From NCBI RefSeq assembly GCF_988243305.1, contig NZ_OZ547136.1: 64,000 nucleotides of DNA; one strand, written 5' to 3'. The notes below the pieces were generated by a model. The model was not told the origin of the DNA. It was given only the letters and a program-made list of their open reading frames with translations, and made no database searches. A program made the position numbers and the translations under genes. Each line of letters starts with the position of its first letter. Within the stretch, counting starts at the first letter, position 1. Shown piece by piece: positions 28,731 through 58,648 of the stretch.

Positions 28731-28757
28731 AATTCACTCATGAAAATGAGTTCAGAG

Positions 28758-28790
28758 AACCGCAAGATTTTTAATTTTGCGGTTTTTTTT
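28758..28790 (+). terminator. Rho-independent terminator after the tRNA-Asp
   Basis: agaaccgcaagatttttaattttgcggttttttttgc: stem ccgcaa/ttgcgg followed by T8. Confidence 0.7.
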
Positions 28791-29060
28791 GCATTTAAAT
28801 CCCGCTATTTCTTCGGTCTATGATTTTGTTATGCTGTAAATGTGTTAATCACATATGGTAGACCATATCATTAATATTTAATCATACTATCGAATCATTC
28901 AATTTAAATATATTTGCATGTTATGATTTTCATTTTTCTATTGATTTAATGAATTTATATTTGCTGTTATTTTTGTTTGTTCTGATTCAAGTGGAGTATA
29001 TAATTAAAAATCGTTAGCTAAACATTACCATGATTATGACAGGCGAGGGAGTGTCCGATT

Positions 29061-29846
29061 ATGAATTTAAGAAGGGTTTGTTGTATATGTGTATTATTCT
29101 CGCTGCTTGCAGGATGTGCCTCTGAATCTCCTATTGATGAAAAAAAGAAAAAAACTCAAACCGCACAAAGTTCTATTAATAAAAACGTTCCCCAGCAACT
29201 AACAGACAAAGATTTATATGGTAATGAAACCACACTGGCTGTATCCGAGGAGGATATTCAAGCTGCGCTTGAAGGAGATGAGTTTCGTGTGCCTCTTAAT
29301 TCTCCCGTTATACTTGTTCAGTCTGGCAGTCGCGCACCGGAAACCATTATGCAGGAGGAGATGAGAAAATATTATACAGTTGCCACATTTTCTGGCATTC
29401 CTGACAGGCAAAAACCTGTAACTTGTAATAAAGACAAAAACAAAGATGAAAGTCTGGATGTTGTAGATGCCGAAAATATGAACTGGATGCAGGCATTACG
29501 TTTTGTTGCGGCAAAAGGCCATCAGAAAGCGATTATTGTTTTCCAGGATACGTTGCAGACAGGAAAATATGACTCTGGATTGAAATCAATAGTTTGGTCA
29601 GATTATAAAAATCAAAAATTGACTGACACGATGTCACTGCGTTATTTGGTTCGATTCACGCTGGTGGATGTGGCTACAGGTGAGTGGGCTACCTGGTCGC
29701 CTGTGAATTATGAATCGAAAGTGATTTTTCCGCAGATAGGGAATAAAAATTCTGACAGCCTTGATGTGGCAGAACAGCAGATTTCACAACTTAAGCAGAA
29801 AACGTACGCAGCAGTGGTTAAAGATCTGGTGAATCGCTATCAGTAG
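29061..29846 (+). CDS. yafT: Lipoprotein YafT
   Basis: 261 aa ORF with lipoprotein signal peptide ([12 protein letters not shown]); AT-rich gene immediately after the tRNA-Asp. Confidence 0.75.
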
Positions 29847-30070
29847 TAAGGTTTTATACCAGACGTTTTAATGGTACTTAGCAAGAAAGAGCATTTTCTT
29901 TTCTATTTATACTCTGGTTCAAGTCTGCTAATTAATTCTACATATATATTTTTTTAGGAGTAGTAAAAAACTTTACTAAAGTTATTTATTGTTCTCTCAA
30001 CATATAAGCTGTAGTTCGAGTTTTCGGTTGAACTGTCAAAAATACATCATACACATCTATAAAACAGCAG

Positions 30071-30110
30071 GTACGGTTAATTAAGAATTTTTATTCGTGA
30101 TTAACCGTAC
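30071..30110. terminator. Hairpin terminator at the distal end of the minus-strand T6SS operon
   Basis: gtacggttaat...attaaccgtac: 11 bp perfect inverted repeat, with a U-run on the minus strand (ctgctgtttt) about 70 nt downstream of the hcp stop. Confidence 0.55.
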
Positions 30111-30182
30111 TTTATCATTTTATAATGTTAAATTGCCTTTTTAAAATATAACAATAATGCAGATGAAAAACGCCCAGGTAAC

Positions 30183-30662
30183 TTAGAAAATCCGTTCACT
30201 CCAAAGGCTGTACGCACTGGTTCCGGCGACGCTGTGCTCCCAGTTGATACTCTCATAGGTAAATGACACAGACTCTTCCGGCTGTCCTGGGCTGTCGTTA
30301 ATGGTATGGGGAACGGTAAGGCCGATGTTTGAGATCCGGGCGTTAGTCAGTTTCACCTTGTAGTACGGTTCATTAACACCAAAGCGGTTGGTGCGATAGA
30401 ATACAAAATCACAGGTCAGACATTCATTCTCCGAAATTGCCTTGCCCAGCAGGGGGGAAGATTTGTCCACCGGTTTCGTGATGGTCAGCTCCTGGTGGTT
30501 GACATTCTGCGCCCGGCTCAGACCATGGGACAGTGACGTCACCATGATCTGATCCTGATGTGCAATCTGGGCTTTGTTACCGATGGACGGCATTGACGAG
30601 CATCCGGATGAAATCAGCCCCTGAAGTTCTCCGTTCAGTGTCAGATAGACGGGATTTGCCAT
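30183..30662 (-). CDS. hcp: T6SS tube protein Hcp (TssD), distal divergent copy
   Basis: 159 aa from MANPVYLTLNGELQG with RBS AAGGAGAATAACA upstream; Hcp-like sequence. The upstream 129 codons of tracked ORF 30183..31049 overlap vasL out of frame and are not part of the gene. Confidence 0.8.
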   Translation of the reverse strand: MANPVYLTLNGELQGLISSGCSSMPSIGNKAQIAHQDQIMVTSLSHGLSRAQNVNHQELTITKPVDKSSPLLGKAISENECLTCDFVFYRTNRFGVNEPYYKVKLTNARISNIGLTVPHTINDSPGQPEESVSFTYESINWEHSVAGTSAYSLWSERIF

Positions 30663-30679
30663 TGTTATTCTCCTTAAAC

Positions 30680-32041
30680 TCAATGGGTCGGAGGGACTGG
30701 CACGGTGCTGTTGTCCGTTGCCATATCCTGTCCGGTATTTTTCAGCAACAGCCAGCGGCTTAACAGCCCATCCAGCCGTTGGTTGATCTCTTTTGCTAGC
30801 GCTTGTGTGTCCTGATTCTGCGTGCGGGTCTCCTGGTACTGCGTCAGCATGTACTCCAGTGGAGTTTCCTGATTCAGTAACCGTTCGGCCTGCCAGGTCA
30901 CCGTTTTGATATACGAGAGGGTGAAACCCTGTTTCTCCGTCTCCTTTTTCATCATCAGATCCGCAAAATCCCGCAAATTCTGCCGCGCCTGTTGCCAGCC
31001 CTTCATCTGCGGACTGGCTTGCGCCCGGTTTCTCAGCGTGGTGCTCCACATCCGGCTGGCTTCCTGCTGTTGCAGGCTTTCCGGCCAGAGGGTGTCTGCG
31101 GTGCGCATCATCTGCATTCCGGTTTCCAGCGGCTGTAGCGGTGGGGTATTCAGAAGCTGTTGCAGGTTCTGTTCATATTCTTTCAGTACCGGTGATGCCA
31201 GCCAGACGGTGGCTGCTCCCTGTGTGGTATCCCTGACCTTTGTAAGCTGCCGCTGCATCGGGTACGTCTGCCACCACCAGAGTGCAGCAGCGATAACGGC
31301 AGTACAGGCGGCACCGGCAACAAAACCTTTTACCGTGTCGCCCTGTTTTGCTTTGTCGGCGTTATCTGCCACTCCGCGCACCTCCACCCGCATTTCCGGC
31401 AGGTCGGGTAGGGGGGGCATGGTTTCCGCTGTGGCGGAAGCCGTGCCTTTAGGCGCATAGACCAGCGTTCTGACCATGGTCTGTACCGCCGTAGCAGTAC
31501 GGTTTCTGGGCTGCGGCTCAAACCGCTTGCGTGTGTTCTGCACAAAATAAAGCAGATTTTCCACGCGCGGTTGGCGCTTCAGTTCCACCTGCTGGAGTTT
31601 GTCGCAGATAAGCTGCAAAGCCCGTTCCGTGCGGTAGAGCAACGAAAGATCATTTTCGGAAAAGGAAACCTGCTGGCGCAGGATATTCCCGGTGCGGGTG
31701 TTGAACCAGTCCAGCATCTCAGTCCTCGCCGGGCCACTTTGCGGCCAGAATTTATCCCATTCGTGGGTGATCATCGCAGCTAGCAGTTCCGCGCCTTCAC
31801 AGAACCCTGCCAGTCCCTGATTACGTGTACGTGCCAGCGTATAGTAGGTGGCGGTATGCAAATCCACCCCGTTGGCCTTAAAAATTGACAGCGCCAGCGA
31901 TTCCACTAGTTTCCAGTTCAGCTCCGGCTGTGACGGGTGGTTAGCTTTGTTAATTTCTTCGCGGATGGCGCTGAACTCCGGCAGGGTACGCGGATCGCTG
32001 CCGGTAACGATAGTTTGTGTCAGTACATTGTTGCTCATCAC
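30680..32041 (-). CDS. vasL: T6SS accessory membrane protein with ImpA-N-like domain (VasL/TagA-like)
   Basis: 453 aa; N-terminal region resembles the ImpA_N domain; single predicted TM helix (GFVAGAACTAVIAAALWWW); sits directly after tssM as vasL does in the V. cholerae cluster. Confidence 0.6.
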   Translation of the reverse strand: MMSNNVLTQTIVTGSDPRTLPEFSAIREEINKANHPSQPELNWKLVESLALSIFKANGVDLHTATYYTLARTRNQGLAGFCEGAELLAAMITHEWDKFWPQSGPARTEMLDWFNTRTGNILRQQVSFSENDLSLLYRTERALQLICDKLQQVELKRQPRVENLLYFVQNTRKRFEPQPRNRTATAVQTMVRTLVYAPKGTASATAETMPPLPDLPEMRVEVRGVADNADKAKQGDTVKGFVAGAACTAVIAAALWWWQTYPMQRQLTKVRDTTQGAATVWLASPVLKEYEQNLQQLLNTPPLQPLETGMQMMRTADTLWPESLQQQEASRMWSTTLRNRAQASPQMKGWQQARQNLRDFADLMMKKETEKQGFTLSYIKTVTWQAERLLNQETPLEYMLTQYQETRTQNQDTQALAKEINQRLDGLLSRWLLLKNTGQDMATDNSTVPVPPTH

Positions 32042-32049
32042 TAACCCCC

Positions 32050-35000
32050 TTAATACAACGTATCCGGTAAACGGAATTGGCTGAACAGACCACCGGTGAA
32101 CGGGTTATCTTCGGTATCCACATGCACCCGATAAACCATCGCGCCGCCGTCCACGTTAAAGCGCACGTTAAAGGTGTCACTGGTCACGTTGGTCAACTGG
32201 CCCGCGCCGAACAGGCGGAACTGCGCCCACGGTCCACTGAAAGCGATACTGCGCGGTGCTCCACCGCTGGTGCCAACCAGCGTCAGCTTGCTTTCATTGC
32301 CTTCACGCATGTTGTTTGGCCAGACCAGATGGGCGGTATAGTTGCGTCCCTGGCTGTAGTCCACTAACTGGCCGTCCAGGTTAAGTACGCTGCGCCGTTT
32401 ATTGCCGGAAAGCGACACCGTTTCCACGGCAAATTGTGTGCCCAGCCCGTTCTGCTGGCTGAAGAAGATGTCGCGGATTTTTTGCGCGGTATCCAGTTGT
32501 TGTCGGATATCTTCACGGATCAGCACTCTGCCGTCGTCGCCAAAGGTCAGATCGTTTTCAAGGAACAGTCGCAGGTTGTCCTTATAGAAATTGTCCAGAA
32601 TGCCATCCGGTTTAAAGAAACGTTCAAACGCATCCAGTGAGGCATCCTGTGAGGCGCGTGGATTAAACGGATAGTTACCGGCAAGCTGTTCGTTGAAGGG
32701 TTTCACTACATTGTCGCGCCAGTCCACTTCCATGTAATGAACAGCTTCCACCATCACCACGTGCCAGGCCTGATCCGCCAGCTTGCCCACCCAGCGGTTA
32801 AGCGGTGCAGGCAGGGTTTTTGCCATCTGGCGGGTGGCGAAGATTGGATCGCTGCTGTTTTGATCCAGGCGTAGCTGCACTGCTTTCAGCGCCGATTTTC
32901 CCGGCACTGGCGAGTTCTGGATCGCCAGCAGGTAACGGTGCAGCTCGGTCAGTTGCTGGTACACGGCCTGTAGCGTACTCGCCTTGTCCTTTTGCTCCTC
33001 CAGTGCGCTGTTTTCCGGTGCGAACTCATGCCCCAGCCGGGACAACAGGCGGTAATCCATCTCATTTATCACCGCTTCCCGCGCCTTATCGTCCAGTTTG
33101 CCGGAGAGCGTCAGCGCGTGTGTATTATCGCGCAGCGCCGTCAGCGCACGCTGGAATGGCTGATCGCCGCTGATAATCTGCTCCAGCGCGTCGGTCAGCG
33201 CCGGCATGGCCTCATAGTCACGGACGTTGAGATTATCCATTCCGGCACGCCATGTAGCGGTATAGTCACTGAGGTACTGTTCAGTGATATGGCGCTGGAT
33301 CTCTTCACGGTCGGCCTCGCTGTAGGCGACGCTTTGCGTCAGGTTCAGCACCCACGAATCCAGCGCGGTCAACTCAACGAGACCGTCGTGTTGTTTGATA
33401 AAATAGCTTTGCAGGCCATAGCGGGTGAGAAACTGCGGGATCACCAGTTTTTCATCATTACCGGCGACGAACACGTTGTCGAAGGTGGGACCAACCTGGT
33501 CGCGCAAATTCAAATCGGCGGGCAACACGCTTAATGCTTTGGTGCGTAGGGTCTGGTAGACACGCTGGTATATCGGCAGTTTGCTCAGTTCATGTTGCGC
33601 ATTAATGACCGGTTTATCATAGGGTGTCCAGCGGCTGATGGCGTCGCTGTCGCCGCTCTGGCGCTGCGCGTGCCAGTCGGTGTGTTCCAGCGCATAGTCC
33701 AGATGTGCCATCAGTTGCGCCTGAATATCACGCTGGCCGTGAAATTCATTGCTCCAGCGCCGCGCCATGTACTGTTTTACCGCCTCGTTGTTGCGCCCAC
33801 TTTTGTCTTCCATCATGCGCACTACGCGCAGCACGGCGAGTTTTTCTTCACTCTCAGGCGGGGCATTGTTCAGATCCCGGATCAGGCCGTTCATTAACGA
33901 GGGGAGATAACGCTGCTCAAGAAGCTGAATGTAGGTTTGTTCCACATATGGCCCTACGCGGACGCCCTGGTACAATCCCATATCCGCCAGAAAACCGTGA
34001 TCGCGGTAATCGCCGTAGGCGAGGGTGGCATCGCGTACCGGGTTGAGTAACGGCAGTTGCAGATTGCCGAATTCATCCTTTCCCTGCGGTGGTGGTACGT
34101 CCATAAAGGCTTTAGCCTGTGCCAGTACGTTAACGCCGGACTGCCAGTTCTGGTTGTAATAATGGTGCCAGCTTCCGACCAGCAATGCCGCCAGTGCCGC
34201 GCCACAGGCGGAAAAGGCGGTCAGCCTGCGCCGGGAGCTGTTCAGCCAGACGCTGTTTTCACCTGCAAGGTTTGGCTCGGCTAGCAGGACTTCCGGGAAG
34301 AGGCGGCGGGTGAAATACGGCGTTGTTTCCACCAGGGGCCAGGTCGCCAGCGAGCTGTTGCCCAGCCCGTACTGGCGGGCGGCGGACTGCGTGAAAATAT
34401 CATCCACCTGGCCGCGCTGTAGCGAGGATGTGAGCCAGACGCCGCGCAGCATCACATCCATATTCTCGCCGTCCAGCAATGCGGCGAGCAGTGAAGTGAC
34501 GATTTCTCCCGTTCCCTGCATCTGACGGGAGAAGCTGAACACGGCGCTGCGTAGCGCAGCACCGGTCTGCACGAGCATCAGGTCTGACAGGGCCAGGTTC
34601 ATCTGTTGTCCCCAGGTCTGCCAGAAGGTGCTCAGCTCGCTGCGCCAGTCATCGTTTTCATGAGCGCGGCGGGTAAACGTGACGCCGAGGATCGCGTCGC
34701 GGTCTTTTTTATCCAGTGAATGGAACAGCGCGGCAAAGCCGGTCAGTAGATCCAGCCGGGTCAGCACCACATAAACGGGCAACCGGCAGTGCAGGCACTG
34801 GCGAATTTCCTGAAGTTGCTGACGCAGATTTTGTACCAGTGCTTCGCGACGGAGTTTATCCGCCGTCAGCAGTTCGGGAAGATCGAGCGTCAGGATCAGA
34901 CCATTGAGCGGCTGGCGTGCGCGCGTTTCCATCAGCCAGCCCAGCCAGTGTTCGCGCAGGCGGCGGTGGAGCAGATCATCCCCGCCGGGGGAGGTCAGTA

Positions 35001-35577
35001 CGCCGTCAACATCGAAAATTACTGCCTGGTTGCCCACTCGCGGTGTGATCAGCGGATGATATTCCACACCCCGGATGCTTTCCGGCATGTAAATAATGTC
35101 AGACGGAAAGCCCTCGCGCAGCAGCGTGCTTTTGCCGCTACCCGCAGGACCAATGACCATATACCACGGCAACTGCCACAGATAACTGCGGTTATCCAGA
35201 TGGCGGCGCAGGCGCAGCAGCCAGTGATCCAAATATTGCTGCTGGTGGTGGAGTTCCACGGTCAACGGATCTTTTTCTTCCTCCCGCTGCTGTTTCTGCT
35301 GTTTTTCCAGCTTTTGCAGACGCTTCATTACCCGCCAGGTGAGCCAGACCAGAGCGATAAGCCCCCAGACGGCGGTCGCCAGCCAGCGGTTTGCCAGCGG
35401 AGCCAGCCAGTGCTGCTCATAGAGCGTCCATTTTGGACCCTGCCACCAGATCCACACCAGCAGAAAAATCCATGCCAGCGCCAGCAGCCAGGCGGCGGAT
35501 ACCTTGAATCGCGGCATCGCTGGCCTGAGCGCAGATCTCAACGAGCTGAACAGTCGGGATGTGGGAAATTTGAACAC
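32050..35577 (-). CDS. tssM: T6SS membrane-complex protein TssM (IcmF/VasK)
   Basis: 1175 aa; N-terminal TM helices and Walker A motif GPAGSGKST; size and position match TssM. Exact start uncertain. Confidence 0.9.
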   Translation of the reverse strand: MFKFPTSRLFSSLRSALRPAMPRFKVSAAWLLALAWIFLLVWIWWQGPKWTLYEQHWLAPLANRWLATAVWGLIALVWLTWRVMKRLQKLEKQQKQQREEEKDPLTVELHHQQQYLDHWLLRLRRHLDNRSYLWQLPWYMVIGPAGSGKSTLLREGFPSDIIYMPESIRGVEYHPLITPRVGNQAVIFDVDGVLTSPGGDDLLHRRLREHWLGWLMETRARQPLNGLILTLDLPELLTADKLRREALVQNLRQQLQEIRQCLHCRLPVYVVLTRLDLLTGFAALFHSLDKKDRDAILGVTFTRRAHENDDWRSELSTFWQTWGQQMNLALSDLMLVQTGAALRSAVFSFSRQMQGTGEIVTSLLAALLDGENMDVMLRGVWLTSSLQRGQVDDIFTQSAARQYGLGNSSLATWPLVETTPYFTRRLFPEVLLAEPNLAGENSVWLNSSRRRLTAFSACGAALAALLVGSWHHYYNQNWQSGVNVLAQAKAFMDVPPPQGKDEFGNLQLPLLNPVRDATLAYGDYRDHGFLADMGLYQGVRVGPYVEQTYIQLLEQRYLPSLMNGLIRDLNNAPPESEEKLAVLRVVRMMEDKSGRNNEAVKQYMARRWSNEFHGQRDIQAQLMAHLDYALEHTDWHAQRQSGDSDAISRWTPYDKPVINAQHELSKLPIYQRVYQTLRTKALSVLPADLNLRDQVGPTFDNVFVAGNDEKLVIPQFLTRYGLQSYFIKQHDGLVELTALDSWVLNLTQSVAYSEADREEIQRHITEQYLSDYTATWRAGMDNLNVRDYEAMPALTDALEQIISGDQPFQRALTALRDNTHALTLSGKLDDKAREAVINEMDYRLLSRLGHEFAPENSALEEQKDKASTLQAVYQQLTELHRYLLAIQNSPVPGKSALKAVQLRLDQNSSDPIFATRQMAKTLPAPLNRWVGKLADQAWHVVMVEAVHYMEVDWRDNVVKPFNEQLAGNYPFNPRASQDASLDAFERFFKPDGILDNFYKDNLRLFLENDLTFGDDGRVLIREDIRQQLDTAQKIRDIFFSQQNGLGTQFAVETVSLSGNKRRSVLNLDGQLVDYSQGRNYTAHLVWPNNMREGNESKLTLVGTSGGAPRSIAFSGPWAQFRLFGAGQLTNVTSDTFNVRFNVDGGAMVYRVHVDTEDNPFTGGLFSQFRLPDTLY

Positions 35578-35596
35578 AGTAACTCCTTGTTATCTT

Positions 35597-37039
35597 TTAC
35601 TGTTCTGCCGTGAATTTTTGTTCCAGTGCTTTCAGCAGGGAAGGCTCCCATTCGGGTAGCATCATGTGTAAGCCTGTTTTGAAGAGCATCCGGTACTGCT
35701 GTTGTGCAAGCTGAACCATACCGGCTTCTTCCAGTAACTGCGCGCCGAAAAATTGGCGATGAAACTGGTTACGGGGATCACCTTCGGGCAGGTTTTCCAG
35801 ATACCGCAGCGCGGTTTCCAGCCCGTTCTCATCGAAGCACGCCCTGGCCGCCTGTAATTCTTCATCGGTCTGTACAGCTGCTGCGGTTTGGTTGCCTGAG
35901 CCCGATGGTGCCAGCCACTGTTTCGTCTGTTCGGACACAAACGGAGTGCGGTCGTTAAACAACAGGTTGATCAGTGCGGGCAGGCGAGCAAGAAAACTGG
36001 TAACTTCATCACGGATAGCATCCGCCACCTGTATATAACCAAGGCGCAACGCGGTCTGTGCTGAGAGGTAATGGCCGTCCAGCCAGTACGGGGCCAGCAG
36101 CAGGCTTTTTTCCACCTGCTGCCAAAGCGCCATGTCGGCATTGTTCAGTCGCGCCAGATAGTCATCCATCATATCTACAGGGAAAGCAGCCAGAGGGGTC
36201 CGGCCATCGCTTTCTGCCTGCGGGGTACTGGTGATGGTCTGCCACAGCGCATGGCGGCGCAGGCGGTAACCCAGCGGTGACTCCGGCTGACGTTCACAGA
36301 GAATGGCGGCTACCTTCAACAGGGTGTCGCGCCATGCTTTATCATCGTGGCTGTCCACGGTGACCTGCGGGATTGGAGTGGCTGCAACAGGAGGCTGAGC
36401 GGAAACTGTGTGCGGTAACATATCCGGTGCAGATCCGGTCGTGGCCTGCGGCGCAATGGCGGCGGTTCGTGCAGATGATGGCATTTCAGGCGCTACATCA
36501 CGAAACGCGCGCTGAAACAGAGTAAATAAATCGTCTGTCGCCTTAGCCAGCTCAGGCGCGTTGTGCGCCTGCCAGCACAGTGCCAGTTTTGCCAGCTCTC
36601 CCAGCAAAGCATCGCGCTGTGTTGTCACAGCATTCCCGGCAAAGTCATGAATGGCCGACTCAAAGCGTTTTATCACTTGGGTGGCGAAGCGTTTTTTGTG
36701 GGCCATGTTCTGCGGCGCGGCGCATGTCCAGTAGTGCTCTGTATATTGTGTCAGTATCCTGGAGGCCAGCAGAATATCACCGGCATGTTGCAGGGTACGC
36801 AGCAGGTGGGCCAGCAGGCGAAAATCTTTGGTTTCTGAGGCCAGAAGCATCAGGCCCCGGCGCTGAAGTTCGGGGATATCAAGCTGGCTGTGCGCCAGTG
36901 AACCGAGCTTGACGATTTCGCTGTCGATAAACTCCCAGTCTGCATTGCCATCATCAAGCGCGGCGGACAGCTTATCTTCCGGCAGGTTTTCCAGCAGGTG
37001 TGCAAGCCATATATCAGGATTACGTAAGTCCATTGCCAT
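35597..37039 (-). CDS. tssA: T6SS protein TssA (VasJ; ImpA N-terminal domain)
   Basis: About 480 aa from MAMDLRNPDIWL with RBS AGGAGA; start lies 5 nt from the vasI stop. Confidence 0.8.
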   Translation of the reverse strand: MAMDLRNPDIWLAHLLENLPEDKLSAALDDGNADWEFIDSEIVKLGSLAHSQLDIPELQRRGLMLLASETKDFRLLAHLLRTLQHAGDILLASRILTQYTEHYWTCAAPQNMAHKKRFATQVIKRFESAIHDFAGNAVTTQRDALLGELAKLALCWQAHNAPELAKATDDLFTLFQRAFRDVAPEMPSSARTAAIAPQATTGSAPDMLPHTVSAQPPVAATPIPQVTVDSHDDKAWRDTLLKVAAILCERQPESPLGYRLRRHALWQTITSTPQAESDGRTPLAAFPVDMMDDYLARLNNADMALWQQVEKSLLLAPYWLDGHYLSAQTALRLGYIQVADAIRDEVTSFLARLPALINLLFNDRTPFVSEQTKQWLAPSGSGNQTAAAVQTDEELQAARACFDENGLETALRYLENLPEGDPRNQFHRQFFGAQLLEEAGMVQLAQQQYRMLFKTGLHMMLPEWEPSLLKALEQKFTAEQ

Positions 37040-37043
37040 ATTT

Positions 37044-49245: not shown

Positions 49246-49267
49246 ACTGAAAATCCTTCTGTGAAAA

Positions 49268-49771: not shown

Positions 49772-49822
49772 AAAAATGTTCCCGTTCAGGCCATGAGCAC
49801 AGCATTTTCGTACTGCATACAA

Positions 49823-50474: not shown

Positions 50475-50993
50475 ATGCCAACCCCATGTTACATTTCTAT
50501 TACGGGCCAGACCCAGGGGAACATCACTGCCGGTGCTTTCACCGCGGATTCTGTCGGCAATATCTACGTGCAGGGGCACGAAGATGAAATGCTGGTGCAG
50601 GAGTTTTTGCACAACGTTACTGTTCCAACCGATCCGCAGTCTGGCCAGCCTTCCGGCCAGCGCGCGCACAAACCGTTCATTTTCACCGTGGCGCTGAACA
50701 AAGCCGTTCCGCTGCTGTACAACGCGCTGGCCTCCGGTGAAATGCTGCCGAAAGTGGAGCTGCACTGGTGGCGTACTTCAGTTGAAGGCAAGCAGGAGCA
50801 CTACTTCACCACACGTCTTACTGACGCGACGATTGTGGACATGAACCTGCACATGCCGCACTGCCAGGACCCTGCACAGCGTGAGTTTACGCAATTGCTC
50901 GCAGTATCACTGGCATACCGTAAGGTTGAGTGGGAGCACATCAAATCCGGTACTTCTGGTGCCGATGACTGGCGTGCACCGCTGGAAGCATAA
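50475..50993 (+). CDS. hcp: T6SS tube protein Hcp (TssD), canonical copy
   Basis: 172 aa from MPTPCYISITGQTQGNITAGAF with RBS AAGGAG; strong resemblance to the canonical Hcp as remembered from V. cholerae. Confidence 0.92.
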   Translation: MPTPCYISITGQTQGNITAGAFTADSVGNIYVQGHEDEMLVQEFLHNVTVPTDPQSGQPSGQRAHKPFIFTVALNKAVPLLYNALASGEMLPKVELHWWRTSVEGKQEHYFTTRLTDATIVDMNLHMPHCQDPAQREFTQLLAVSLAYRKVEWEHIKSGTSGADDWRAPLEA

Positions 50994-51213
50994 ATCTGAG
51001 TCAACAACATCCTGCCTTCGTGCAGGATGTTGTTTTTGTACGTGTAAAAAATGAGTGTCAGTAAGGAGTTACGCTTTCATGAGGGAGATGGCGGATGCCG
51101 GAAACCCGGGCGGTAGCGTACCTGAAAATGTAAAGATGAGTGTAACGCTGCACTGGCACCCTTTGCTGCATGGTGAGAATCATTTGGTCCGTGAATAAAT
51201 CAGGGGGGTCATT

Positions 51214-53196
51214 ATGTCCTTAAAAGGTCTGCGCTTTACGCTGGAGGTTGACGGCCAGGAGCCGGACACCTTTGCAGTGGTGAATTTCAGGTTAATCCAG
51301 AACCAGTCATATCCGTTTGTGATGAGTGTGGATGTTGCCAGCGACTCTTTTATGCAGACGGCGGAGATGCTGCTGGAGAAGAAGGCGACACTGACCATCT
51401 GGCAGGGCGCAGTGGCGCAGCGTTATGTCACCGGCGTGGTGGCGGGTTTTGGCATGCAGGAGAATAACGGCTGGCAGATGCGTTATCACCTGCGTATTGA
51501 GCCGCCGTTATGGCGGTGCGGGCTGCGGCAGAACTTCCGTATCTTCCAGCAGCAGGATATCCGGACGATATCGGCCACGTTACTGAACGAGAACGGCGTC
51601 ACGGAGTGGACGCCGCTGTTTTATGAGGACCATCCGGCGCGGGAGTTCTGTGTCCAGTACGGGGAGTCGGACCTGGCGTTTCTGTCCCGGCTGTGGGCGG
51701 AGGAGGGAATTTTCTTCTTTGAGCGGTTTGCGGCGGACAGTCCGGAGCAGAAGCTGACGCTGTGCGACGATGTGGCGGGGCTGTCACAGGCGGGAGAGCT
51801 TCCGTTTAACCCGGACACATCGACAGGAGCGGAGACGGAGTGTGTCAGTATGTTCCGTTATGAGGCGCATGTCCGCCCGTCGTCGGTGCAGAGCCAGGAT
51901 TACACGTTTAAGGTGCCGGACTGGCCGGGGATGTATGAGCAGCAGGGTGAGAACCTGAACGGACAGCTGGCGCAGTATGAGATATTTGATTATCCGGGAA
52001 GGTTCAAGGACGAGCAGCACGGCAAGGATTTCACGCTGTACCAGATGGGCAGCCTGCGCAGTGATGCGGAAAAGGCCACAGGGCAGAGTAATTCACCGAA
52101 GCTGTGGCCGGGAACGCAGTTTACGCTGACGGGGCATCCGCAGAAGATGCTGAACCGTGAATGGCAGGTGGTACAGAGCATACTGTCAGGAAGCCAGCCG
52201 CAGGCGCTGCACGGCAGCCAGGGGAGAGGAACCACGCTGGGAAATCAGTTAGAGGTGATACCGGCAGACCGGACGTGGCGTCCACGGCTGCAAAGCAAAC
52301 CGAAGGTGGACGGGCCACAGAGCGCCATTGTCACCGGGCCTGCGGGAGAGGAAATCTTCTGCGACGAACATGGCCGGGTACGGGTGAAGTTCCACTGGGA
52401 CCGTTATCACGGGATGACGGAGGCGAGTTCATGCTGGGTGCGGGTATCGCAGGCGTGGGCGGGGCCGGGTTTCGGCAATCTGGCGATACCGCGGGTGGGT
52501 CAGGAGGTGATTGTTGATTTCCTGAACGGCGACCCGGACCAGCCGATAATCATGGGACGGACATACCATGAGGACAACCGTTCGCCGGGGAGTCTGCCGG
52601 GGACGAAGACGCAGATGACGATACGGTCGAAGACCTATAAAGGAAGCGGATTTAACGAACTGCGCTTTGAGGACGCCACAGATAAGGAACAGGTCTATAT
52701 TCACGCGCAGAAGAACATGGATACGGAAGTGCTGAATGACCGGACGACGGACGTGAAGCATGACCACACGGAAACCATTGGTAACGACCAGAAGATAACG
52801 GTGGGGTTGGGCCAGACGGTGAATGTGGGGAGCAAAAAGGAAGGTGGTCATGACCAGAAAGTGACGGTAGCGAACGATCAGCATCTCACGATAAAAAATG
52901 ACCGGCACAAGGTTGTAAATAACAACCAGACAAGCAAGGTGACGGGAACTGATACCGAAGAAGTCGTCAAAAAACAGAGTATTAAAATAGGTGATAATTA
53001 CGAACTGAAAGTTGAGCATGGTACAAAAATCATATCTGGGGACAGTATTGAGCTAATTTGTGGGCAGGGAGAGAGCGGGACTTGTTCCATAAAACTGGAG
53101 AAAACAGGAAAGATAATAATACGGGGGACGGAGTTTCTATTTGAGGCTACCGGTCCTGTAGATATTAAAGGAAAAGATATTCATCTGAACGGATAG
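51214..53196 (+). CDS. vgrG: T6SS spike protein VgrG (TssI), no C-terminal toxin extension
   Basis: 660 aa; gp27/gp5-like VgrG; C-terminal repeats (HDQKVTVANDQHLTIKNDRHKV); the 3' about 350 nt are visibly AT-richer than the rest. Confidence 0.92.
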   Translation: MSLKGLRFTLEVDGQEPDTFAVVNFRLIQNQSYPFVMSVDVASDSFMQTAEMLLEKKATLTIWQGAVAQRYVTGVVAGFGMQENNGWQMRYHLRIEPPLWRCGLRQNFRIFQQQDIRTISATLLNENGVTEWTPLFYEDHPAREFCVQYGESDLAFLSRLWAEEGIFFFERFAADSPEQKLTLCDDVAGLSQAGELPFNPDTSTGAETECVSMFRYEAHVRPSSVQSQDYTFKVPDWPGMYEQQGENLNGQLAQYEIFDYPGRFKDEQHGKDFTLYQMGSLRSDAEKATGQSNSPKLWPGTQFTLTGHPQKMLNREWQVVQSILSGSQPQALHGSQGRGTTLGNQLEVIPADRTWRPRLQSKPKVDGPQSAIVTGPAGEEIFCDEHGRVRVKFHWDRYHGMTEASSCWVRVSQAWAGPGFGNLAIPRVGQEVIVDFLNGDPDQPIIMGRTYHEDNRSPGSLPGTKTQMTIRSKTYKGSGFNELRFEDATDKEQVYIHAQKNMDTEVLNDRTTDVKHDHTETIGNDQKITVGLGQTVNVGSKKEGGHDQKVTVANDQHLTIKNDRHKVVNNNQTSKVTGTDTEEVVKKQSIKIGDNYELKVEHGTKIISGDSIELICGQGESGTCSIKLEKTGKIIIRGTEFLFEATGPVDIKGKDIHLNG

Positions 53197-53302
53197 TGCA
53201 GGATATAAAACATGGTGATTGTATTTGCTTTATACGCCTGTGAATCACCATTTGTGATTGTTTAAATTAATCATAGCATGACTTATTCAGGAATCAATAA
53301 GC

Positions 53303-54349
53303 ATGATAGAAATGAAAAATAACACACCATTTCCTTTGTTGTCATTTGAAAAATATGGTCGTTATGGTCTTTTGTTTGATGTTATTGCTATTAAAATGTC
53401 ATTGCGAATTAAAAATGGATTTTATGCTGATCTTGCTGAGTTTCAAAAAGAATTGTCCATGTCTGATGAATACTATGGGGAGTCTGAAACAAGTAGTCTA
53501 AAATCTGAAACAGACTTAGTTCTTTGTAAAAGAAATACAGATATTCACGTGACAGGTAGTGCTCATGCCCCTCCAGGGGATAAGTCTAAGTGGAAGGCTT
53601 GTGTGAGGGTTAATAGTTTTTCTAAAGAACTGAGTTTATCTGGTGTCCGCTACTTACAATATGAGCGAAATCGTTGGCAGATGAGCTTACCAGATAAAAT
53701 TATTAATGTTCCTCTACGCTATGAGCTTGCTTACGGTGGTATTTGGCAACCAGATGGTATGGAGAAATTGGTTTTTTCAGCAAACCCTGTAGGTTGTGGA
53801 TATTATCCTGATATTTCTCAACTTAATACAAGTTGTCAATATAAACTCCCACAAATAACCAGCTCTGCTTTGTCAGAAAACGCTACCATTTTTAATGGGG
53901 AATCTGACTTTTTTCAAGGTGTTGGCCCTGTATCTCGATGGTGGAAAAGTCGCCTCCAGTATGCAGGAACCTACAATGAAGTATGGCGTGAAAAGCGCTA
54001 TCCCTATTTGCCGGATGATTTTGATGAGCGGTTCTACAATAGTGCTCATCCGGATATGATATACACGGGGTTTCTCTCTGGCGATGAAAACATCTCTCTT
54101 GAAGGTTTTTTTAAATTTGAACAGGTTGTTAAGACAAAATTGCCAGGTATACGACCTGTACTTATATTAAAAACCAAGCATAATACATCACATATGTTCT
54201 TACCTGTTGCGGATACAATGGTTATCGATTTAAGTCGACAGGAAATATACCTTACCTGGAGATTAACAATACCTGATTTTTTTGGAATGAAAGAAGGAGT
54301 GCTGAGTTGTATTATTCCTGAATGTATAGGGAAAAAATATTATGGGTAA
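53303..54349 (+). CDS. Putative T6SS adaptor protein (DUF2169-like)
   Basis: 348 aa AT-rich gene immediately downstream of vgrG and translationally coupled (8 nt overlap) to a PAAR-like effector gene, the canonical DUF2169 context; assignment is by context and size, not verified by search. Confidence 0.5.
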   Translation: MIEMKNNTPFPLLSFEKYGRYGLLFDVIAIKMSLRIKNGFYADLAEFQKELSMSDEYYGESETSSLKSETDLVLCKRNTDIHVTGSAHAPPGDKSKWKACVRVNSFSKELSLSGVRYLQYERNRWQMSLPDKIINVPLRYELAYGGIWQPDGMEKLVFSANPVGCGYYPDISQLNTSCQYKLPQITSSALSENATIFNGESDFFQGVGPVSRWWKSRLQYAGTYNEVWREKRYPYLPDDFDERFYNSAHPDMIYTGFLSGDENISLEGFFKFEQVVKTKLPGIRPVLILKTKHNTSHMFLPVADTMVIDLSRQEIYLTWRLTIPDFFGMKEGVLSCIIPECIGKKYYG

Positions 54350-55382
54350 CTATCATATCGGGGATGGTGAATGTAGATTTAGAGTCGTGTGTTCTTCACC
54401 AGATGTATGTGAAGTAGGAGGTTACAAGGTTCCTTTTGACAGTTACCAGACTTTAGATAGTGAAAGACAGTACAGTTCAACGGTATGGGCGCGTGGATGC
54501 AGAGCTTTAAATGTTGGTTCAGTGATTGCTGGAACTCAAAGTAATGCCGGTAAAGGTGTCATATCCGGTACATCTCAAGGAACGGGTGACTGTGTTATTT
54601 TAACGGGAAGTCCGACTGTAACAATAGAAGGGAAACCTGTTGCTTATCATGGTTCAGTTGTTGGGATTAATAACCATAACTGCCTTGGTAAATTGTATAC
54701 CAAAATAAAATCACCAATGATTTCTGTCATTGATAAAACTTTTAGTTATGAAAGGACTGCTGAAGTAATACACGATTTACTGCTTCTGAAGGATCTCCTT
54801 TCTGTTGGGAATATTTTGGGCGGAGATATTTCACCTGAGGTTAAAAATGATTTATTTCAAATAAAAGATCCTGACCAATCATGGGGGGAGTTTTTTTCAA
54901 TAAAGAATATCAGAGAATCTCTCAGGAATGGTATTGAAGGAGATAAATCTCAGATCAGAGAATGGTTTGGAGAGAACACACTTACTCAAATGGGCAATGG
55001 AGCAATCACCACTTTACATGGTGTGGCGGATTTAGCCTTAGTTACATTCGATGCTCTGTTAGATACGGCAACGGCAACGGTTGCTTGCCCGATAGGCGAA
55101 GATGGGTTATGTGAACAGGCAAATATAAATTTAAATGAAAAAGAACAGGCTTTATTTAATATTAGTAATTCATTGATAAATGGGCAAGCATGGGATGCAC
55201 TTAAAAAAATGATAATGGATACAAATAATGGTGATCAGATTGCTCTGGAGCATTTTGCCAGCTTTTTATGGGGCTTTATGATACCCGCAAAAATACCAGA
55301 AGAAAATATCTCTGGGAAAGTATTTGTAGAGCCAGTAGTTTTAGAAGGTGGTGCTGGTGGCAATTGGACAGTATTTGATTAG
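54342..55382 (+). CDS. PAAR-like (DUF4150-type) T6SS effector, N-terminal and linker portion; ends at an in-frame TAG
   Basis: 346 aa; N-terminal about 125 aa with the DUF4150-like pattern (GTGDCVILTGSPTVTIEGKPVAYHGSVVGINNHNCLG); helical central region; the stop TAG at 55380..55382 is in frame with the following toxin-like ORF. Confidence 0.6.
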   Translation: MGNYHIGDGECRFRVVCSSPDVCEVGGYKVPFDSYQTLDSERQYSSTVWARGCRALNVGSVIAGTQSNAGKGVISGTSQGTGDCVILTGSPTVTIEGKPVAYHGSVVGINNHNCLGKLYTKIKSPMISVIDKTFSYERTAEVIHDLLLLKDLLSVGNILGGDISPEVKNDLFQIKDPDQSWGEFFSIKNIRESLRNGIEGDKSQIREWFGENTLTQMGNGAITTLHGVADLALVTFDALLDTATATVACPIGEDGLCEQANINLNEKEQALFNISNSLINGQAWDALKKMIMDTNNGDQIALEHFASFLWGFMIPAKIPEENISGKVFVEPVVLEGGAGGNWTVFD

Positions 55383-55409
55383 GTTTTAGATTCAAATGTA
55401 ATAAAGCAA

Positions 55410-55781
55410 TTGACTTTAACAGGCTGTGGAGCGGCCTGTGGGGAAATGTTGCTTAGGGATAGGTATATTTTTGTCACGCAAAATGTAATTGGAACAGAAT
55501 TAACATCTATGACGTCGCTGGCAAACAAGCTTAATAAATTTGATGTCGGCTGGGAAGGGAATGAAGTGAGCGAATCTAGTTTATATGCCCTCAGTAATAC
55601 TGGTTCATGGGGAGCAATGATGTGGGATTCTGGAAGTAAAGTAGGGCATTGGGTACTTGTTAAGGGTGTTGATGATGCTGGGAATGTGATAATATATGAT
55701 CCATATCAAGGGAGTCGATATCTGATGACTGAACAGGAATTTAAGGAGGTATGGAATGGGCATAGTGTTTACAAACCATAA
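55410..55781 (+). pseudogene. Papain/C39-like cysteine-peptidase toxin domain, in frame with the upstream PAAR ORF (split by one TAG codon)
   Basis: 123 codons with no ATG or RBS before the putative catalytic Cys (GCGAACGEMLL); His (GHWVLVKG) and Asp (DDAGNVIIYDP) complete a papain-like Cys-His-Asp order reminiscent of peptidase C39; continuous with ORF 54342..55382 except for one TAG. Confidence 0.45.
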
Positions 55782-56046
55782 TATTGATTTGTTATCGGTT
55801 GAATTTGATGAGATTACAAAAAATTGTAATTACACTTTTAGTGTAGATGGAGAGACGGCTATCTTTACTGCTAGAATATCAATAATAAGAAATATAAAGG
55901 GAATTAAATATAGCGAAGAACTTGATAAATTTATAATGTCAATAATGCCATTGCAGCCTAAAGTATCAAAAATTTTGGGAGGTGTTACTTGGGATTGTAT
56001 TTGTGGTAAGGAAGTTGGATTTCCTGTGAGATTAATTGGTAAGTGA
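55756..56046 (+). CDS. Candidate cognate immunity protein (cytoplasmic)
   Basis: 96 aa; strong RBS AAGGAGG 7 nt before the ATG; overlaps the last 26 nt of the toxin-domain ORF; no signal peptide. Confidence 0.5.
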   Translation: MGIVFTNHNIDLLSVEFDEITKNCNYTFSVDGETAIFTARISIIRNIKGIKYSEELDKFIMSIMPLQPKVSKILGGVTWDCICGKEVGFPVRLIGK

Positions 56047-56284
56047 AGGGTGGTGAGGTATTTCTATATTTTTTTTCGTGAAAGTCTTTAAAACTAAAAT
56101 TATCTTGTTGGGAGCCCAAGGTGAGATCATAAAACGTATTATTTTATAAATATTGTTATGCAGGGAAAGGTCAAGTAATGCTGCTTTTTTGTACTAAATA
56201 ATTCGCATTTTATGTTCAATAATTGAGGTGTTCCTTATTACCTAAAGCTGTTTTTCATTGCTTATACATGATCAAATACTCATT

Positions 56285-57130
56285 GCATAATTAAGGGGGC
56301 AAAATGGAACTTAAAAAATTGATGGAACATATTTCTGTTATCCCCGATTACAGGCAAGCCTGGAAAGTGGAACATAAATTGCCAGATATTCTATCTGTTA
56401 ACTATTTGCGCCGTTATTTCTGGTGCATAAGGCTGGGAAGATATAGAGGATTTGGGGAAACACATCTCGATTTTTTGAAGTGATATGGTGATTTTGAAAA
56501 TGGTATTCCTGTTCACGATATCATTGCCAGAGTTGTATCCTGTATCAGTCCTGCAAAATTTTACGAGTGCTTTATTAACTGGATGCGTGACTGTCATTCT
56601 TCAGATGATAAAGACATCATCGCAATTGATGGAAAAACGCTCCGGCACTCTTATGATAAAAGTCGTCAAAAGGGAGCAATTTATGTCATTAAAATCCGTC
56701 TTCATATTGTTTGCATGTCTCTGATGAATTTATTGATTTTACGTTTGAATGGAAAGGGCTGAAGAAATTATGCATGGCAGTCTCATTTCGCTCAATAATA
56801 GCAGAACAAAAGAAAAATCCCGAAATGACGGTCAGATATTATAGCATTTCTGCTGATTTAACCGCAGAGAAGTTCGCCACAGCGAACCGAAATCACTGGC
56901 AAGTGGAGAATAAATTGCACTGGCATCTGGACGTGGTAATGAATAAAGACGACTTCAAAATAAGAAGAGGAAATGCAGCAGAATTATTTTCAGGGATACG
57001 GAAGATCGCTATTAATATTTTAACGAAAGATAAGATAATCAAGGCAGGGGCAAGATGTAAGATGTGAAAAGCAGCTGCGGACAGAGACTACCTCGCGTCA
57101 GTCCTTGCGGGGGCGGGCTTTCGTAATCTT
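56285..57130 (+). pseudogene. ISAs1-family (H-repeat-associated) transposase, degenerate: frameshifts plus internal deletion
   Basis: Segments matching the N-terminus ([26 protein letters not shown]...GETHLDFLK), middle ([10 protein letters not shown]...[19 protein letters not shown]) and C-terminus ([12 protein letters not shown]...[18 protein letters not shown]...[20 protein letters not shown]) of H-repeat transposases in different frames, with about 120 codons missing from the middle. Confidence 0.75.
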
Positions 57131-57295
57131 GTTCTGCAAGGGATGATAAAAAGTGCAACTTTATTCCACGCAGCTATTTAGACAGCGTACAGTAAACAAA
57201 CGAAAGTTGTTATTTCAATGGTCAGGGCAAGAGCATGAAGTGTTTACTACACACTATGCTCTTGTCCTGGAGTCAGGTCTTGTCTGGAGGGATAA

Positions 57296-57799
57296 ATGGT
57301 AGATATTGTCGAGGCCGATAAAACGGATATTTATTTCATTCAGGAGAGTGTTTATGGCAAAATCGGGTTGCCAGCTTTGGGTAATACAATAGGACCATCC
57401 GCACAGCAAGTTGTTAAAAAGGTATTCGCTGTCGTTAAAGAACGAGATAAGACACATGCAAAACAGAGATTATTGTTGGAATATAATGGTAACAAACTCT
57501 GGATGAATGCTATTGATGGCAGTGAAGCTATCCTACCAACAGAATTTTCTAAGCGGTACGAACTTTCATTATTCAATACTACTAATTTTGGAGAAGATCC
57601 TTTTCCTGATGTTAATTTATATAATAATATGAAATCAAGTTTTTTTGTAAGGTTTGGTGGAACATCCCATCCCGAGGCTTGGGCTATTTATAATGCAAGT
57701 ACGAAAGAGGTTAAATATATAGAAACTGCAAGAGAAATTGATAAAATATTCAGTGATTTTAACTTGAGTGGTACATTGCCAATTCACATTGGTCAATGA
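57296..57799 (+). CDS. Hypothetical protein (cysteine-free, no signal peptide)
   Basis: 167 aa ORF with strong RBS (GGAGGG) 6 nt upstream; AT-rich; between the two ISAs1 fragments; no recognisable family. Confidence 0.45.
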   Translation: MVDIVEADKTDIYFIQESVYGKIGLPALGNTIGPSAQQVVKKVFAVVKERDKTHAKQRLLLEYNGNKLWMNAIDGSEAILPTEFSKRYELSLFNTTNFGEDPFPDVNLYNNMKSSFFVRFGGTSHPEAWAIYNASTKEVKYIETAREIDKIFSDFNLSGTLPIHIGQ

Positions 57800-57864
57800 T
57801 TTTTAAATTGTGTGATTAAATAATTGAACATTAATGATGATTTATAGCATCATTATTCTATAAC

Positions 57865-58377
57865 ATGAATAAACGGATTGAATGTGTTATGTTAAAAATG
57901 AGTTTATACGTAATAATATTGTTATTTTCCTTTCAGATTAGTGCAGCCATTACTAGCAAGGAAAGTGAGGTTGTTTCACCATTATTAATGGATGTTAATT
58001 CTTCACTAACAATGGAAAATATATCTGAATTATCCACATCATCGGAACCATCGCAACAGGGGGTATTTCCTGTAATATGTACTCGACTTCATCCTGGCTC
58101 CGTAATGAAACGCCAGTTATTAACCGGCTGGGGGCCTGTTTTTATAATTGGTGATGATCCTTTTTCTCTGCGCTGGATGAGTGAACATCTGGAGATCCTT
58201 AAATCGCTAAATGCCCTTGGTTTGGTTGTTAATGTTGAATCAGTAGAACGAATGGAGGTATTACAGCAGCGGGCTGATGGGTTATTGTTATTGCCAGTTA
58301 TCTGCGATAATTTCGTGCAAACTCTGCAATTAAATGCTTATCCGGTATTAATCACAGAGATGGAAATATCACAATGA
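57865..58377 (+). CDS. Hypothetical exported protein (signal peptide)
   Basis: 170 aa ORF with N-terminal signal-like segment (MLKMSLYVIILLFSFQISAAITS); AT-rich; no recognisable family. Confidence 0.45.
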   Translation: MNKRIECVMLKMSLYVIILLFSFQISAAITSKESEVVSPLLMDVNSSLTMENISELSTSSEPSQQGVFPVICTRLHPGSVMKRQLLTGWGPVFIIGDDPFSLRWMSEHLEILKSLNALGLVVNVESVERMEVLQQRADGLLLLPVICDNFVQTLQLNAYPVLITEMEISQ

Positions 58378-58394
58378 TTAATAACATAATTACT

Positions 58395-58640
58395 GCAAAT
58401 AATATCGTAATTTTGAAAATGGTAATCCTGTTCACGACACCATAATTAGAGTTATGTCTTGTATCCGTTCAGTATAATTTCACGAATGCTTTATTAACTG
58501 GATGCGAGATTGCCATTCATCAAATGATAAAGACGTCATCGCAATTGATGGAAAAGCGCTTCCACACTCCTATGATAAAAGTGGTCGCAGGAGAGCGGGC
58601 TTTCGTAGTCATACCCCGACTCTCCCCAGCCCTAAACACA
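58395..58640 (+). pseudogene. yafF: ISAs1-family (H-repeat) transposase fragment, second copy (yafF-like remnant)
   Basis: About 220 bp direct repeat of 56490..56700 encoding FENGNPVHDTI...[35 protein letters not shown], adjacent to yafV. Confidence 0.7.
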
Positions 58641-58648
58641 ACCCCCAC

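Follow-up and report, generated by a model that had tools for sequence, protein, structure and literature searches.

In Escherichia coli, two variants of T6SS-2, a type VI secretion system (T6SS), have been described at a tRNA-Asp gene, and they are mutually exclusive (PMC8715443). The T6SS of O157/ECC-1470 has been assigned to subtype i1, or T6SS-2 (PMC5422975), and in enterohaemorrhagic E. coli (EHEC) the island at the tRNA-Asp gene aspV has a size of 37 kb (PMC5363993). The island of the other variant, named here the APEC-O1 type (APEC, avian pathogenic E. coli), is described in PMC4232414 and PMC8715443 and corresponds to GI-16 of APEC IMT5155 and to T6SS2 of Ma et al. Different T6SSs occupy aspV: Salmonella pathogenicity island (SPI) 20, reported in 2009, is likewise a T6SS at this gene, with a G+C content of 55–60% that is broken by regions of about 42%, and has no flanking direct repeats (PMC2907695). 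Here we describe the region between aspV and yafV (positions 28,731 to 58,648) in a stretch of 64,000 nucleotides from contig NZ_OZ547136.1 of assembly GCF_988243305.1, which as a whole is called the window. Very probably this region is the E. coli genomic island with a subtype-i1 T6SS (“T6SS-2” in the scheme of Journet and Cascales) in its APEC-O1-type variant. It consists of three modules with different evolutionary behaviour, and the mosaic of its base composition follows this modularity. The location of the island, its two mutually exclusive variants, the uneven G+C content and the lack of attachment (att) repeats are already known from published work. What the re-analysis adds are the exact module boundaries, a recombination junction in vgrG, an amber codon in cpe1 next to a preserved immunity gene, and the joint occurrence of yafT with the system across genera and tRNA sites.

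Gene content was taken from relatives and from the Prokaryotic Genome Annotation Pipeline (PGAP) annotation of a 99.87%-identical genome. From left to right dnaQ and tRNA-Asp are followed by a 261-aa hypothetical gene (yafT), by hcp, vasL and the series from tssM to tssB on the minus strand, and by a divergent hcp and vgrG. The annotation contains tssA, B, C, E, F, G, H, J, K, L (icmH) and M, two hcp genes and tssI. With hcp counted as tssD and vgrG as tssI, the 13-gene T6SS core from tssA to tssM is complete, and the open reading frames (ORFs) are intact in the window. The first gene of this block is hcpA (tssD, 159 aa; 30183..30662, minus strand; TIGR03344, E = 9e-61). It is followed by the structural operon (30680..49771, minus strand), in which the genes are arranged on the map as vasL, tssM, tssA, vasI, tssH (clpV), tssL (icmH/dotU), tssK, tssJ, tagH (forkhead-associated, FHA), tssG, tssF, tssE, tssC and tssB. 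The accessory genes of i1-type systems (tagH, vasI, vasL) are thus all present, and gene order reveals the divergent layout of tssBC and hcp-vgrG; the assignment to subtype i1 is based on this match of gene set and order to O157/ECC-1470 and not on a TssB/TssC phylogeny. In a survey of 5,426 complete E. coli genomes we found the core of the window type in 581 genomes at 95–99% identity (98% in APEC O2:K1 strains) and the O157-type core at the aspV-yafV site in 2,345. About half of the surveyed genomes have one of the two T6SS-2 variants at aspV. The region thus shows the polymorphism of presence and absence and the atypical composition that go with genomic islands at tRNA loci.

The base composition changes abruptly along the region. 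The backbone has a G+C content of 0.509 on the left and 0.533 on the right side, compared with 0.348 in the tRNA-proximal part (28731–30182), 0.564 in the T6SS core (30183–49245), 0.323 between tssB and hcp (49772–50474), 0.569 in hcpB and the vgrG core (50475–52700) and 0.378 in the distal part (52701–58648). At third codon positions (GC3) the AT-rich segments reach 0.23–0.36 and the GC-rich ones 0.60–0.73. When analyzed in 1-kb windows, the core (mean 0.564, standard deviation 0.028) differed from the backbone (mean 0.513, standard deviation 0.032) with a Mann-Whitney p = 5.6e-6 and the distal part (mean 0.380) with p = 5e-4. The dinucleotide difference delta* to the backbone was 131 for the distal part (maximum of size-matched backbone samples 55); the core reached 58, with 54 as the null maximum. 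For the tRNA-proximal 1.45 kb, a short piece for such a signature, a delta* of 74 was not significant against the backbone (null 60, standard deviation 20), and a foreign origin of 28.7–30.2 kb by dinucleotide signature was dropped for lack of significance at that length. Between the two AT-rich ends delta* is 84. Unsupervised Jensen-Shannon segmentation placed breaks at 28,729, 30,438, 46,677, 49,849, 50,502, 52,890 and 58,580.

A first-pass annotation of the region had already described a mosaic of a GC-rich T6SS core flanked by AT-rich segments. The non-uniform composition is well supported: segment G+C ranges from 0.32 to 0.57, and the blind breaks fall within tens of bases of the boundaries proposed at both ends. 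The structural genes are indeed richer in G+C than the backbone (0.564 versus 0.51–0.53), but their start had been placed about 0.4 kb too far to the right, as hcpA begins the block at 30,183. Both AT-rich ends were recovered as well (0.348 and 0.378), but the AT-rich spacer between tssB and hcp (0.323) had been overlooked and the distal step lies inside vgrG, at about 52,665. Within the structural operon a further gradient is seen, the G+C content of about 0.56 decreasing to 0.49–0.53 at tssE, tssC and tssB. This stretch (46678–49849), the promoter-proximal end of the operon, has a G+C content of 0.51, with a GC3 of 0.45 for tssE, versus 0.57 in the rest of the core.

On its left side the island is marked by aspV (tRNA-Asp(GTC); 28654..28730, plus strand; ARAGORN, Rfam), which is identical to the rrn-linked tRNA-Asp gene at 20432–20508. 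A terminator scan located its intrinsic terminator at 28754..28797 (plus strand), and the high-identity E. coli backbone ends just past it, at about 28,790–28,800. In sliding comparisons of the window with O157 and K-12, identity amounts to roughly 93–100% through dnaQ, aspV and the terminator and to roughly 55–90% from 28,800, with 0.67–0.71 at 28,800 itself. Because identity drops at 28,800, yafT belongs to the divergent block. On the right side high identity is regained at 58,625 in comparison to O157 and at 58,590 in comparison to K-12, the earlier match to K-12 arising because K-12 and the window have a common ISAs1-family 3’ terminus (GCGGGCTTTCGTAGT) that abuts the yafV terminator region. 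The first right-hand backbone gene is yafV (2-oxoglutaramate amidase; 58649..59419, minus strand; PGAP), with 98% identity to O157 and K-12. The break of synteny after tRNA-Asp and its return at yafV, both noticed in the first pass, can thus be placed about 70 bp past the tRNA and about 25 bp before yafV.

The position next to a tRNA gene raises the question of a classical tRNA-targeting pathogenicity island, in which a tyrosine integrase would have made a single insertion at the aspV 3’ end and the integrase and the distal att site would have been lost later. In its favor, the first Jensen-Shannon break (28,729) falls on the final bases of tRNA-Asp, exactly at the 3’ end of the gene. However, the identity to other E. 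coli runs about 60–70 bp past the tRNA and through its terminator, unlike in a fresh attL, and nothing in the window sequence indicates integrase-mediated mobility. Exact k-mers of the aspV 3’ end, from 16 down to 10 nt, are absent near the distal boundary. When the 3’-terminal 25 nt and 16 nt of tRNA-Asp were searched with up to 3 mismatches, the whole window gave matches only within the two tRNA-Asp genes, and a general repeat search likewise revealed no attR-type direct repeat of the tRNA 3’ end at the distal boundary. In the PGAP annotations of the 99.87%-identical genome and of a collinear genome there is no integrase gene, tyrosine integrases included. Mobility-type genes in the island comprise only remnants of ISAs1 transposases and one gene of an integrating conjugative element (ICE; TIGR03765), and an Rfam scan of the window yielded rRNA, tRNA and StyR-44 only, with no match inside the island. 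The O157 variant equally lacks an integrase and a tRNA-end repeat. Exact searches (at least 10 nt), searches with 3 mismatches and annotation therefore all agree with the absence of both that had been stated in the first pass.

aspV also serves integrative elements, as B2 strains such as Nissle 1917 show. In Nissle 1917 (L004, 20729–40728) the homology with the window breaks off precisely where aspV ends at its 3’ side. Next comes a CP4-like island that contains CbtA/YeeU, RadC, antirestriction genes and several insertion sequence (IS) elements and adjoins the tRNA with its DUF4942 end. aspV is therefore a genuine integration hotspot, which argues for the classical island, as do the location of related T6SS-yafT islands beside three different tRNAs and the partial tRNA 3’-end copies found between tRNA-Ser and yafT in other genera. 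Homologous recombination together with IS-linked deletion nevertheless accounts for the turnover observed at the site, and we consider a single integrase-mediated insertion unlikely. The copies at tRNA-Ser occur in Phytobacter ursingii (L022, 16458–17166) and Citrobacter werkmanii (L025, 16415–17325), where the gap between tRNA-Ser and yafT holds two to three of them in tandem. The repeats also take in the terminator and the sequence that follows it for some 170 bp, and they look like att-type scars of past integrations; nothing comparable is present at aspV of the window.

The AT-rich left end is occupied by yafT (29061..29846, plus strand; G+C 0.405, GC3 0.355), a lipoprotein gene with the lipobox LLAGC. 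It belongs to family PF25851 “YafT”, a label that is carried in precomputed annotation by the homologues found with its profile, and the lipobox cysteine is invariant in an alignment of 14 YafT sequences, as expected for a lipoprotein. The literature treats YafT as a lipoprotein of unknown function from a K-12 “y-gene” and assigns it to the core genome of E. coli, where it would only flank the island. Searches in Pfam, NCBIfam, PADLOC and the PDB sequences gave no match informative of function; the predicted fold resembles, at moderate confidence, the small outer-membrane lipoproteins PelC, LptE and LpoB. Downstream, in the 336-bp spacer between the convergent genes yafT and hcpA, an inverted repeat with 18-nt arms and a 4-nt loop (30071..30110) is probably a bidirectional terminator. 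The same spacer is a cargo slot in other variants, with three genes in O157 and with ykfM and yafU in K-12 and in a metagenome-assembled genome (MAG) of Citrobacter (L027).

The first-pass annotation had placed yafT in an AT-rich accessory segment. A separate acquisition of yafT as an accessory gene is contradicted by its distribution in other genera. A TssM profile scan with one genome per species resulted in 22 loci from Escherichia whittamii, Citrobacter, Pseudocitrobacter, Superficieibacter, Buttiauxella, Atlantibacter, Enterobacter, Lelliottia, Phytobacter, Yokenella, Trabulsiella and Rahnella. A yafT homologue is located just beyond hcp, convergent as in the window, in at least 13 of the 22 loci. 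Altogether yafT at the hcp-vasL end of such clusters was noted in L008–L011, L018–L020, L022, L023, L025–L027, L029 and L030–L033. The arrangement T6SS-hcp-yafT was found in Escherichia whittamii, Citrobacter, Pseudocitrobacter, Superficieibacter, Buttiauxella, Lelliottia, Phytobacter and Trabulsiella, and it stands beside tRNA-Asp (L008, L009, L010, L020, L027), tRNA-Phe (L018, L029) or tRNA-Ser (L022, L025). In all of these at least 13 loci yafT codes for a lipoprotein and is poorer in G+C (0.40–0.47) than the core (0.51–0.60), by 4 to 17 points, and it is AT-rich in all genera despite a protein divergence of 50–90%. Even a degraded Hafnia locus retains the trio yafT-hcp-vasL, and in Salmonella members of PF25851 also adjoin Rhs genes. 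Because other genera show the contrast between yafT and the core as well, in at least 13 loci, it is an old feature and provides no evidence of a second donor here. The AT-rich yafT end is therefore an old conserved partner of the cluster and not a late accessory of this lineage.

This bears directly on the proposal, also made in the first pass, that at least two donors were joined stepwise. In its strict form a high-GC donor of the core and a low-GC donor of the yafT and effector ends would have been combined in this lineage. The strong contrasts in G+C and dinucleotides support such a join, and so do the effector cassettes, which differ among strains, and one comparison between genera in which core and yafT differ in their history. 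In this comparison a Pseudocitrobacter MAG contig (L020, CAJYVI010000048.1; aligned to 22539–45559 of the window) is 94–95% identical to the window in the core, from 30,183 (the end of hcpA) onward, and only 78% identical in yafT and the housekeeping flank from mltD to aspV. This suggests that, unless the contig is chimeric, the structural block was exchanged between genera far more recently than the hosts diverged, with a breakpoint in the yafT-hcpA spacer; core and yafT can then have separate histories, and the core can move alone. On the other hand, the contrast between yafT and core in at least 13 loci at three tRNA sites predates the lineage. The two AT-rich ends are also unlike each other (the delta* of 84), the tRNA-proximal part does not deviate significantly from the backbone, and the AT-richness of toxin and immunity genes recurs in unrelated cassettes, so that a property of the class fits better than a single shared donor. 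We therefore regard the join of two donors in this lineage as very unlikely. Of the original proposal the parts that concern the effector end and the separability of the core are retained; the yafT end as the contribution of a second donor is not. G+C content by itself does not name donors.

The comparison with K-12, which the first pass had recommended, confirmed that the variable interval is bounded by aspV and yafV. K-12, however, does not represent an empty site. It carries aspV, an O157-type yafT (98.8%), ykfM, a truncated yafU, an ISAs1 fragment (yafF) and yafV, and beyond yafT it shows no nucleotide similarity to the window or to O157. ykfM and the yafU fragment of K-12 (L002, 7978–8823) are homologues, at 94–95% amino acid identity, of small membrane-protein genes in the Citrobacter locus L027 (15906–16747), where tblastn places them between hcp and yafT. 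The aspV-yafV interval of K-12 is thus what a deletion has left of an O157-type T6SS island, with both ends kept. ykfM, which with 159 aa has the length of hcpA and lies at the same position, was also considered as an hcp remnant; tblastn ruled this out, as it encodes a different small membrane protein. The complete O157 island has the same gene order in the core as the window at about 76% DNA and 43–91% protein identity, and a similar G+C layout (tRNA-proximal part 0.35, core 0.556, tssB-hcp spacer about 0.33). TssE, TssF, TssG and TssK are the proteins most diverged between the variants (43–61% identity, versus 79–91% for TssM, VasI, TssH and TssL).

At the other end of the island the transition from high to low G+C content coincides with a site of exchange. 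hcpB (tssD, 172 aa; 50475..50993, plus strand; TIGR03344, E = 3e-62) is followed by vgrG (tssI, 660 aa; 51214..53196, plus strand; TIGR03361), which consists of a core (nt 1–1451, to about 52,664; G+C 0.59) and a cassette-specific C-terminus (G+C 0.45). The two vgrG copies of a sister strain are identical up to this point and unrelated from nt 1452 onward, corresponding to about 52,665 in the window, where the G+C step is located. The distal step therefore marks a cassette-exchange junction inside vgrG. The closest relative possesses a further vgrG module of 5,664 bp, two modules versus the single one of the window, and its absence here is consistent with recombination between identical vgrG cores.

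The genes beyond vgrG form a VgrG-linked effector cassette of adaptor, PAAR-like effector and small immunity gene, and such cassettes vary from strain to strain. A DUF2169 accessory or adaptor gene (53303..54349, plus strand; PF09937, E = 2.7e-71, PGAP; G+C 0.37), associated with effector loading, precedes cpe1 (54342..55781, plus strand), a PAAR-like cysteine-protease effector with a Tox-PAAR-like domain (PF13665) and a toxin part matching PDB 9l5u_A (E = 9e-88). In comparison to the intact Cpe1 of strain AHB2 (479 aa), a GAG codon of the reading frame has become the amber codon TAG in the window (E347*, at 55380–55382). The stop separates the PAAR-like carrier (54342–55379) from the toxin domain with its catalytic C362, the context of Cys362 being conserved. 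This cpe1 is probably a pseudogene. The adjacent immunity gene cpi1 (55756..56046, plus strand; PGAP; G+C 0.31) is intact and matches PDB 9l5u_C “Cpi1” over all 96 residues (E = 4e-62). Cpe1 cleaves GyrB and ParE, and Cpi1 acts as a competitive blocker (PMC12136450). The amber codon would thus stop the delivery of Cpe1 while immunity is kept, and this combination would fit a strain that no longer attacks but still defends itself. Three cassettes were examined, and in each of them the G+C content is high (0.56–0.61) in the parts for delivery, namely vgrG core, PAAR and Rhs core, and low (0.27–0.40) in the toxin tips and immunity genes. AT-rich toxin and immunity genes next to GC-rich delivery genes are a general property of polymorphic-toxin loci. 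The patchwork described above is accordingly ordinary for this class of island, which combines a conserved GC-rich machine with exchangeable AT-rich toxin and immunity cargo.

Between the cassette and yafV the sequence holds remnants of mobile elements. A degraded transposase gene of the ISAs1 family (H-repeat; 56305..57128, plus strand) is annotated by PGAP as “frameshifted; internal stop”, is 89.6% similar to K-12 yafF and has kept its 3’ terminus (GGGCTTTCGTA, about 57115–57125). It is followed by an ORF of 167 aa (57296..57799, plus strand; G+C 0.35), for which Pfam, NCBIfam and PADLOC gave no match, and by an isolated ICE remnant, a gene of the PFL_4695 family (57865..58377, plus strand; TIGR03765, E = 2e-35; G+C 0.38). 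A second ISAs1 remnant (58397..58624, plus strand), in which 200 internal nucleotides are fused to the 3’ terminus of the element, closes the variable block on its right side, some 25 bp away from the stop codon of yafV. The two ISAs1 remnants flank the 167-aa ORF and the ICE gene and share a 200-nt direct repeat (56478–56677 and 58397–58596, 82% identity). O157 has an intact ISEc26 at the position of the second remnant.

A further possibility is that the mosaic is mainly functional or selective, the AT-rich parts being H-NS-silenced control regions and cargo and the GC-rich parts reflecting the amino acid and codon needs of large structural proteins. The divergent intergenic region between tssB and hcpB (49772..50474, 703 bp; G+C 0.32) has the lowest G+C content anywhere in the island, falling to about 0.21 at 49.9–50.1 kb, and is probably a regulated promoter or control region. 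The corresponding spacer in O157 is likewise AT-rich (G+C 0.328), and its persistence in two variants that are only 76% identical argues for a functional cause, as does the AT-richness of yafT throughout the genera. A role of H-NS is suggested because the T6SS is de-repressed in a delta-hns donor, hns deletion switching this system on (PMC12136450), and because the yafT locus of K-12 is a transcriptionally silent protein-occupancy domain (tsEPOD; PMC4191405). The abrupt loss of homology inside vgrG and the differences in cassettes between strains are, however, historical events that such constraints leave unexplained, and the GC3 gap between AT-rich and GC-rich segments is wider than protein composition alone would impose. 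As the main cause of the mosaic, function and selection are in our view possible but doubtful.

The data are best described by an island of three modules. The first is the left end, in which AT-rich yafT, together with hcpA and vasL, is a long-standing terminal neighbor across Enterobacteriaceae. The second comprises 13 core and accessory genes with a G+C content of about 56%; they encode the membrane complex, the baseplate, the sheath and the recycler ClpV, and the block is probably inherited and exchanged as a unit via homologous recombination. In the third, the spike and effector end, the conserved vgrG core probably serves as a recombination handle, beyond which AT-rich cassettes (vgrG C-terminus, adaptor, PAAR-toxin, immunity gene) are swapped, duplicated and lost. 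In the window this third module consists of DUF2169, the amber-cut Cpe1 and Cpi1, followed by debris (two ISAs1 remnants, the ICE gene and the 167-aa ORF). The composition follows the modules, with GC-rich machine genes and AT-rich toxin and immunity genes, IS and ICE debris, yafT and control region. Turnover of the whole site is probably due to homologous recombination, in which the conserved flanks (dnaQ-aspV and yafV) and conserved internal genes take part, and to IS-associated deletion.

Several observations weigh against this reading or limit it. The G+C excess of the core over the backbone is only about 5 points and is equalled by the native gene fadE (G+C 0.562; GC3 0.645, versus 0.60–0.70 for T6SS genes). 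Being small and overlapping with native genes, the excess by itself says little about a foreign origin. In about 6 of 19 informative loci there is no yafT within 10 kb of the T6SS, so that the linkage is frequent but not universal. The transfer of the core between genera is drawn from one metagenome-assembled contig, which could be chimeric, and the partial tRNA-Ser 3’-end repeats leave room for integrase-mediated events in the past history of the family. The silencing of the AT-rich parts by H-NS, the tssB-hcpB spacer included, is deduced from composition and from papers on other strains. Secretion and killing by the copy in the window are putative; for a related strain, killing of E. coli MG1655 is described when hns is deleted (PMC12136450). 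With its truncated Cpe1 the window copy may deliver nothing from this cassette.

The island is one of the main weapons between E. coli strains in the gut. For YafT we put forward a tentative idea, which we hold to be rather unlikely as a whole: the protein could belong to the subtype-i1 T6SS island of Enterobacteriaceae as its conserved terminal component, an outer-membrane lipoprotein with a fold like that of PelC, LptE and LpoB that works with the T6SS or protects against it. The copy in K-12 would then be the last intact relic of the deleted island.

Among the known systems the APEC-O1-type T6SS-2 island is the closest, with gene set and order as in the window and a core that is 98% identical in APEC O2:K1 strains. 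The window differs from it by the cassette DUF2169-Cpe1-Cpi1 with the amber codon in cpe1, and by one vgrG module instead of the two of the nearest relative. The O157-type variant, about four times as common as the window type (2,345 versus 581 genomes), shares the site, gene order, the AT-rich yafT end, the GC-rich core, the AT-rich spacer and an ISAs1-family element beside yafV. In contrast to the window it is only about 76% identical at the DNA level, has three extra genes between yafT and hcp, and ends in an Rhs-based effector region in place of the Cpe1 cassette. Salmonella SPI-20 and SPI-6 are also T6SS islands beside aspV. They belong to another genus, SPI-6 falls into a different T6SS phylogenetic group, and the likeness to them is one by description only. 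Loci of Rhs and other polymorphic toxins and “vgrG islands” show the same succession of a GC-rich delivery part and variable AT-rich toxin tips and immunity genes, often with ISAs1 (H-repeat) elements nearby, but in the window the toxin carrier is a PAAR-like protein loaded via DUF2169 and not an Rhs shell. The toxin domain and the immunity protein, finally, match Cpe1-Cpi1 of E. coli ATCC 11775 (PMC12136450; PDB 9l5u) with E = 9e-88 and 4e-62. Unlike in ATCC 11775, codon 347 is TAG in the window, and carrier and toxin domain no longer form a single polypeptide.

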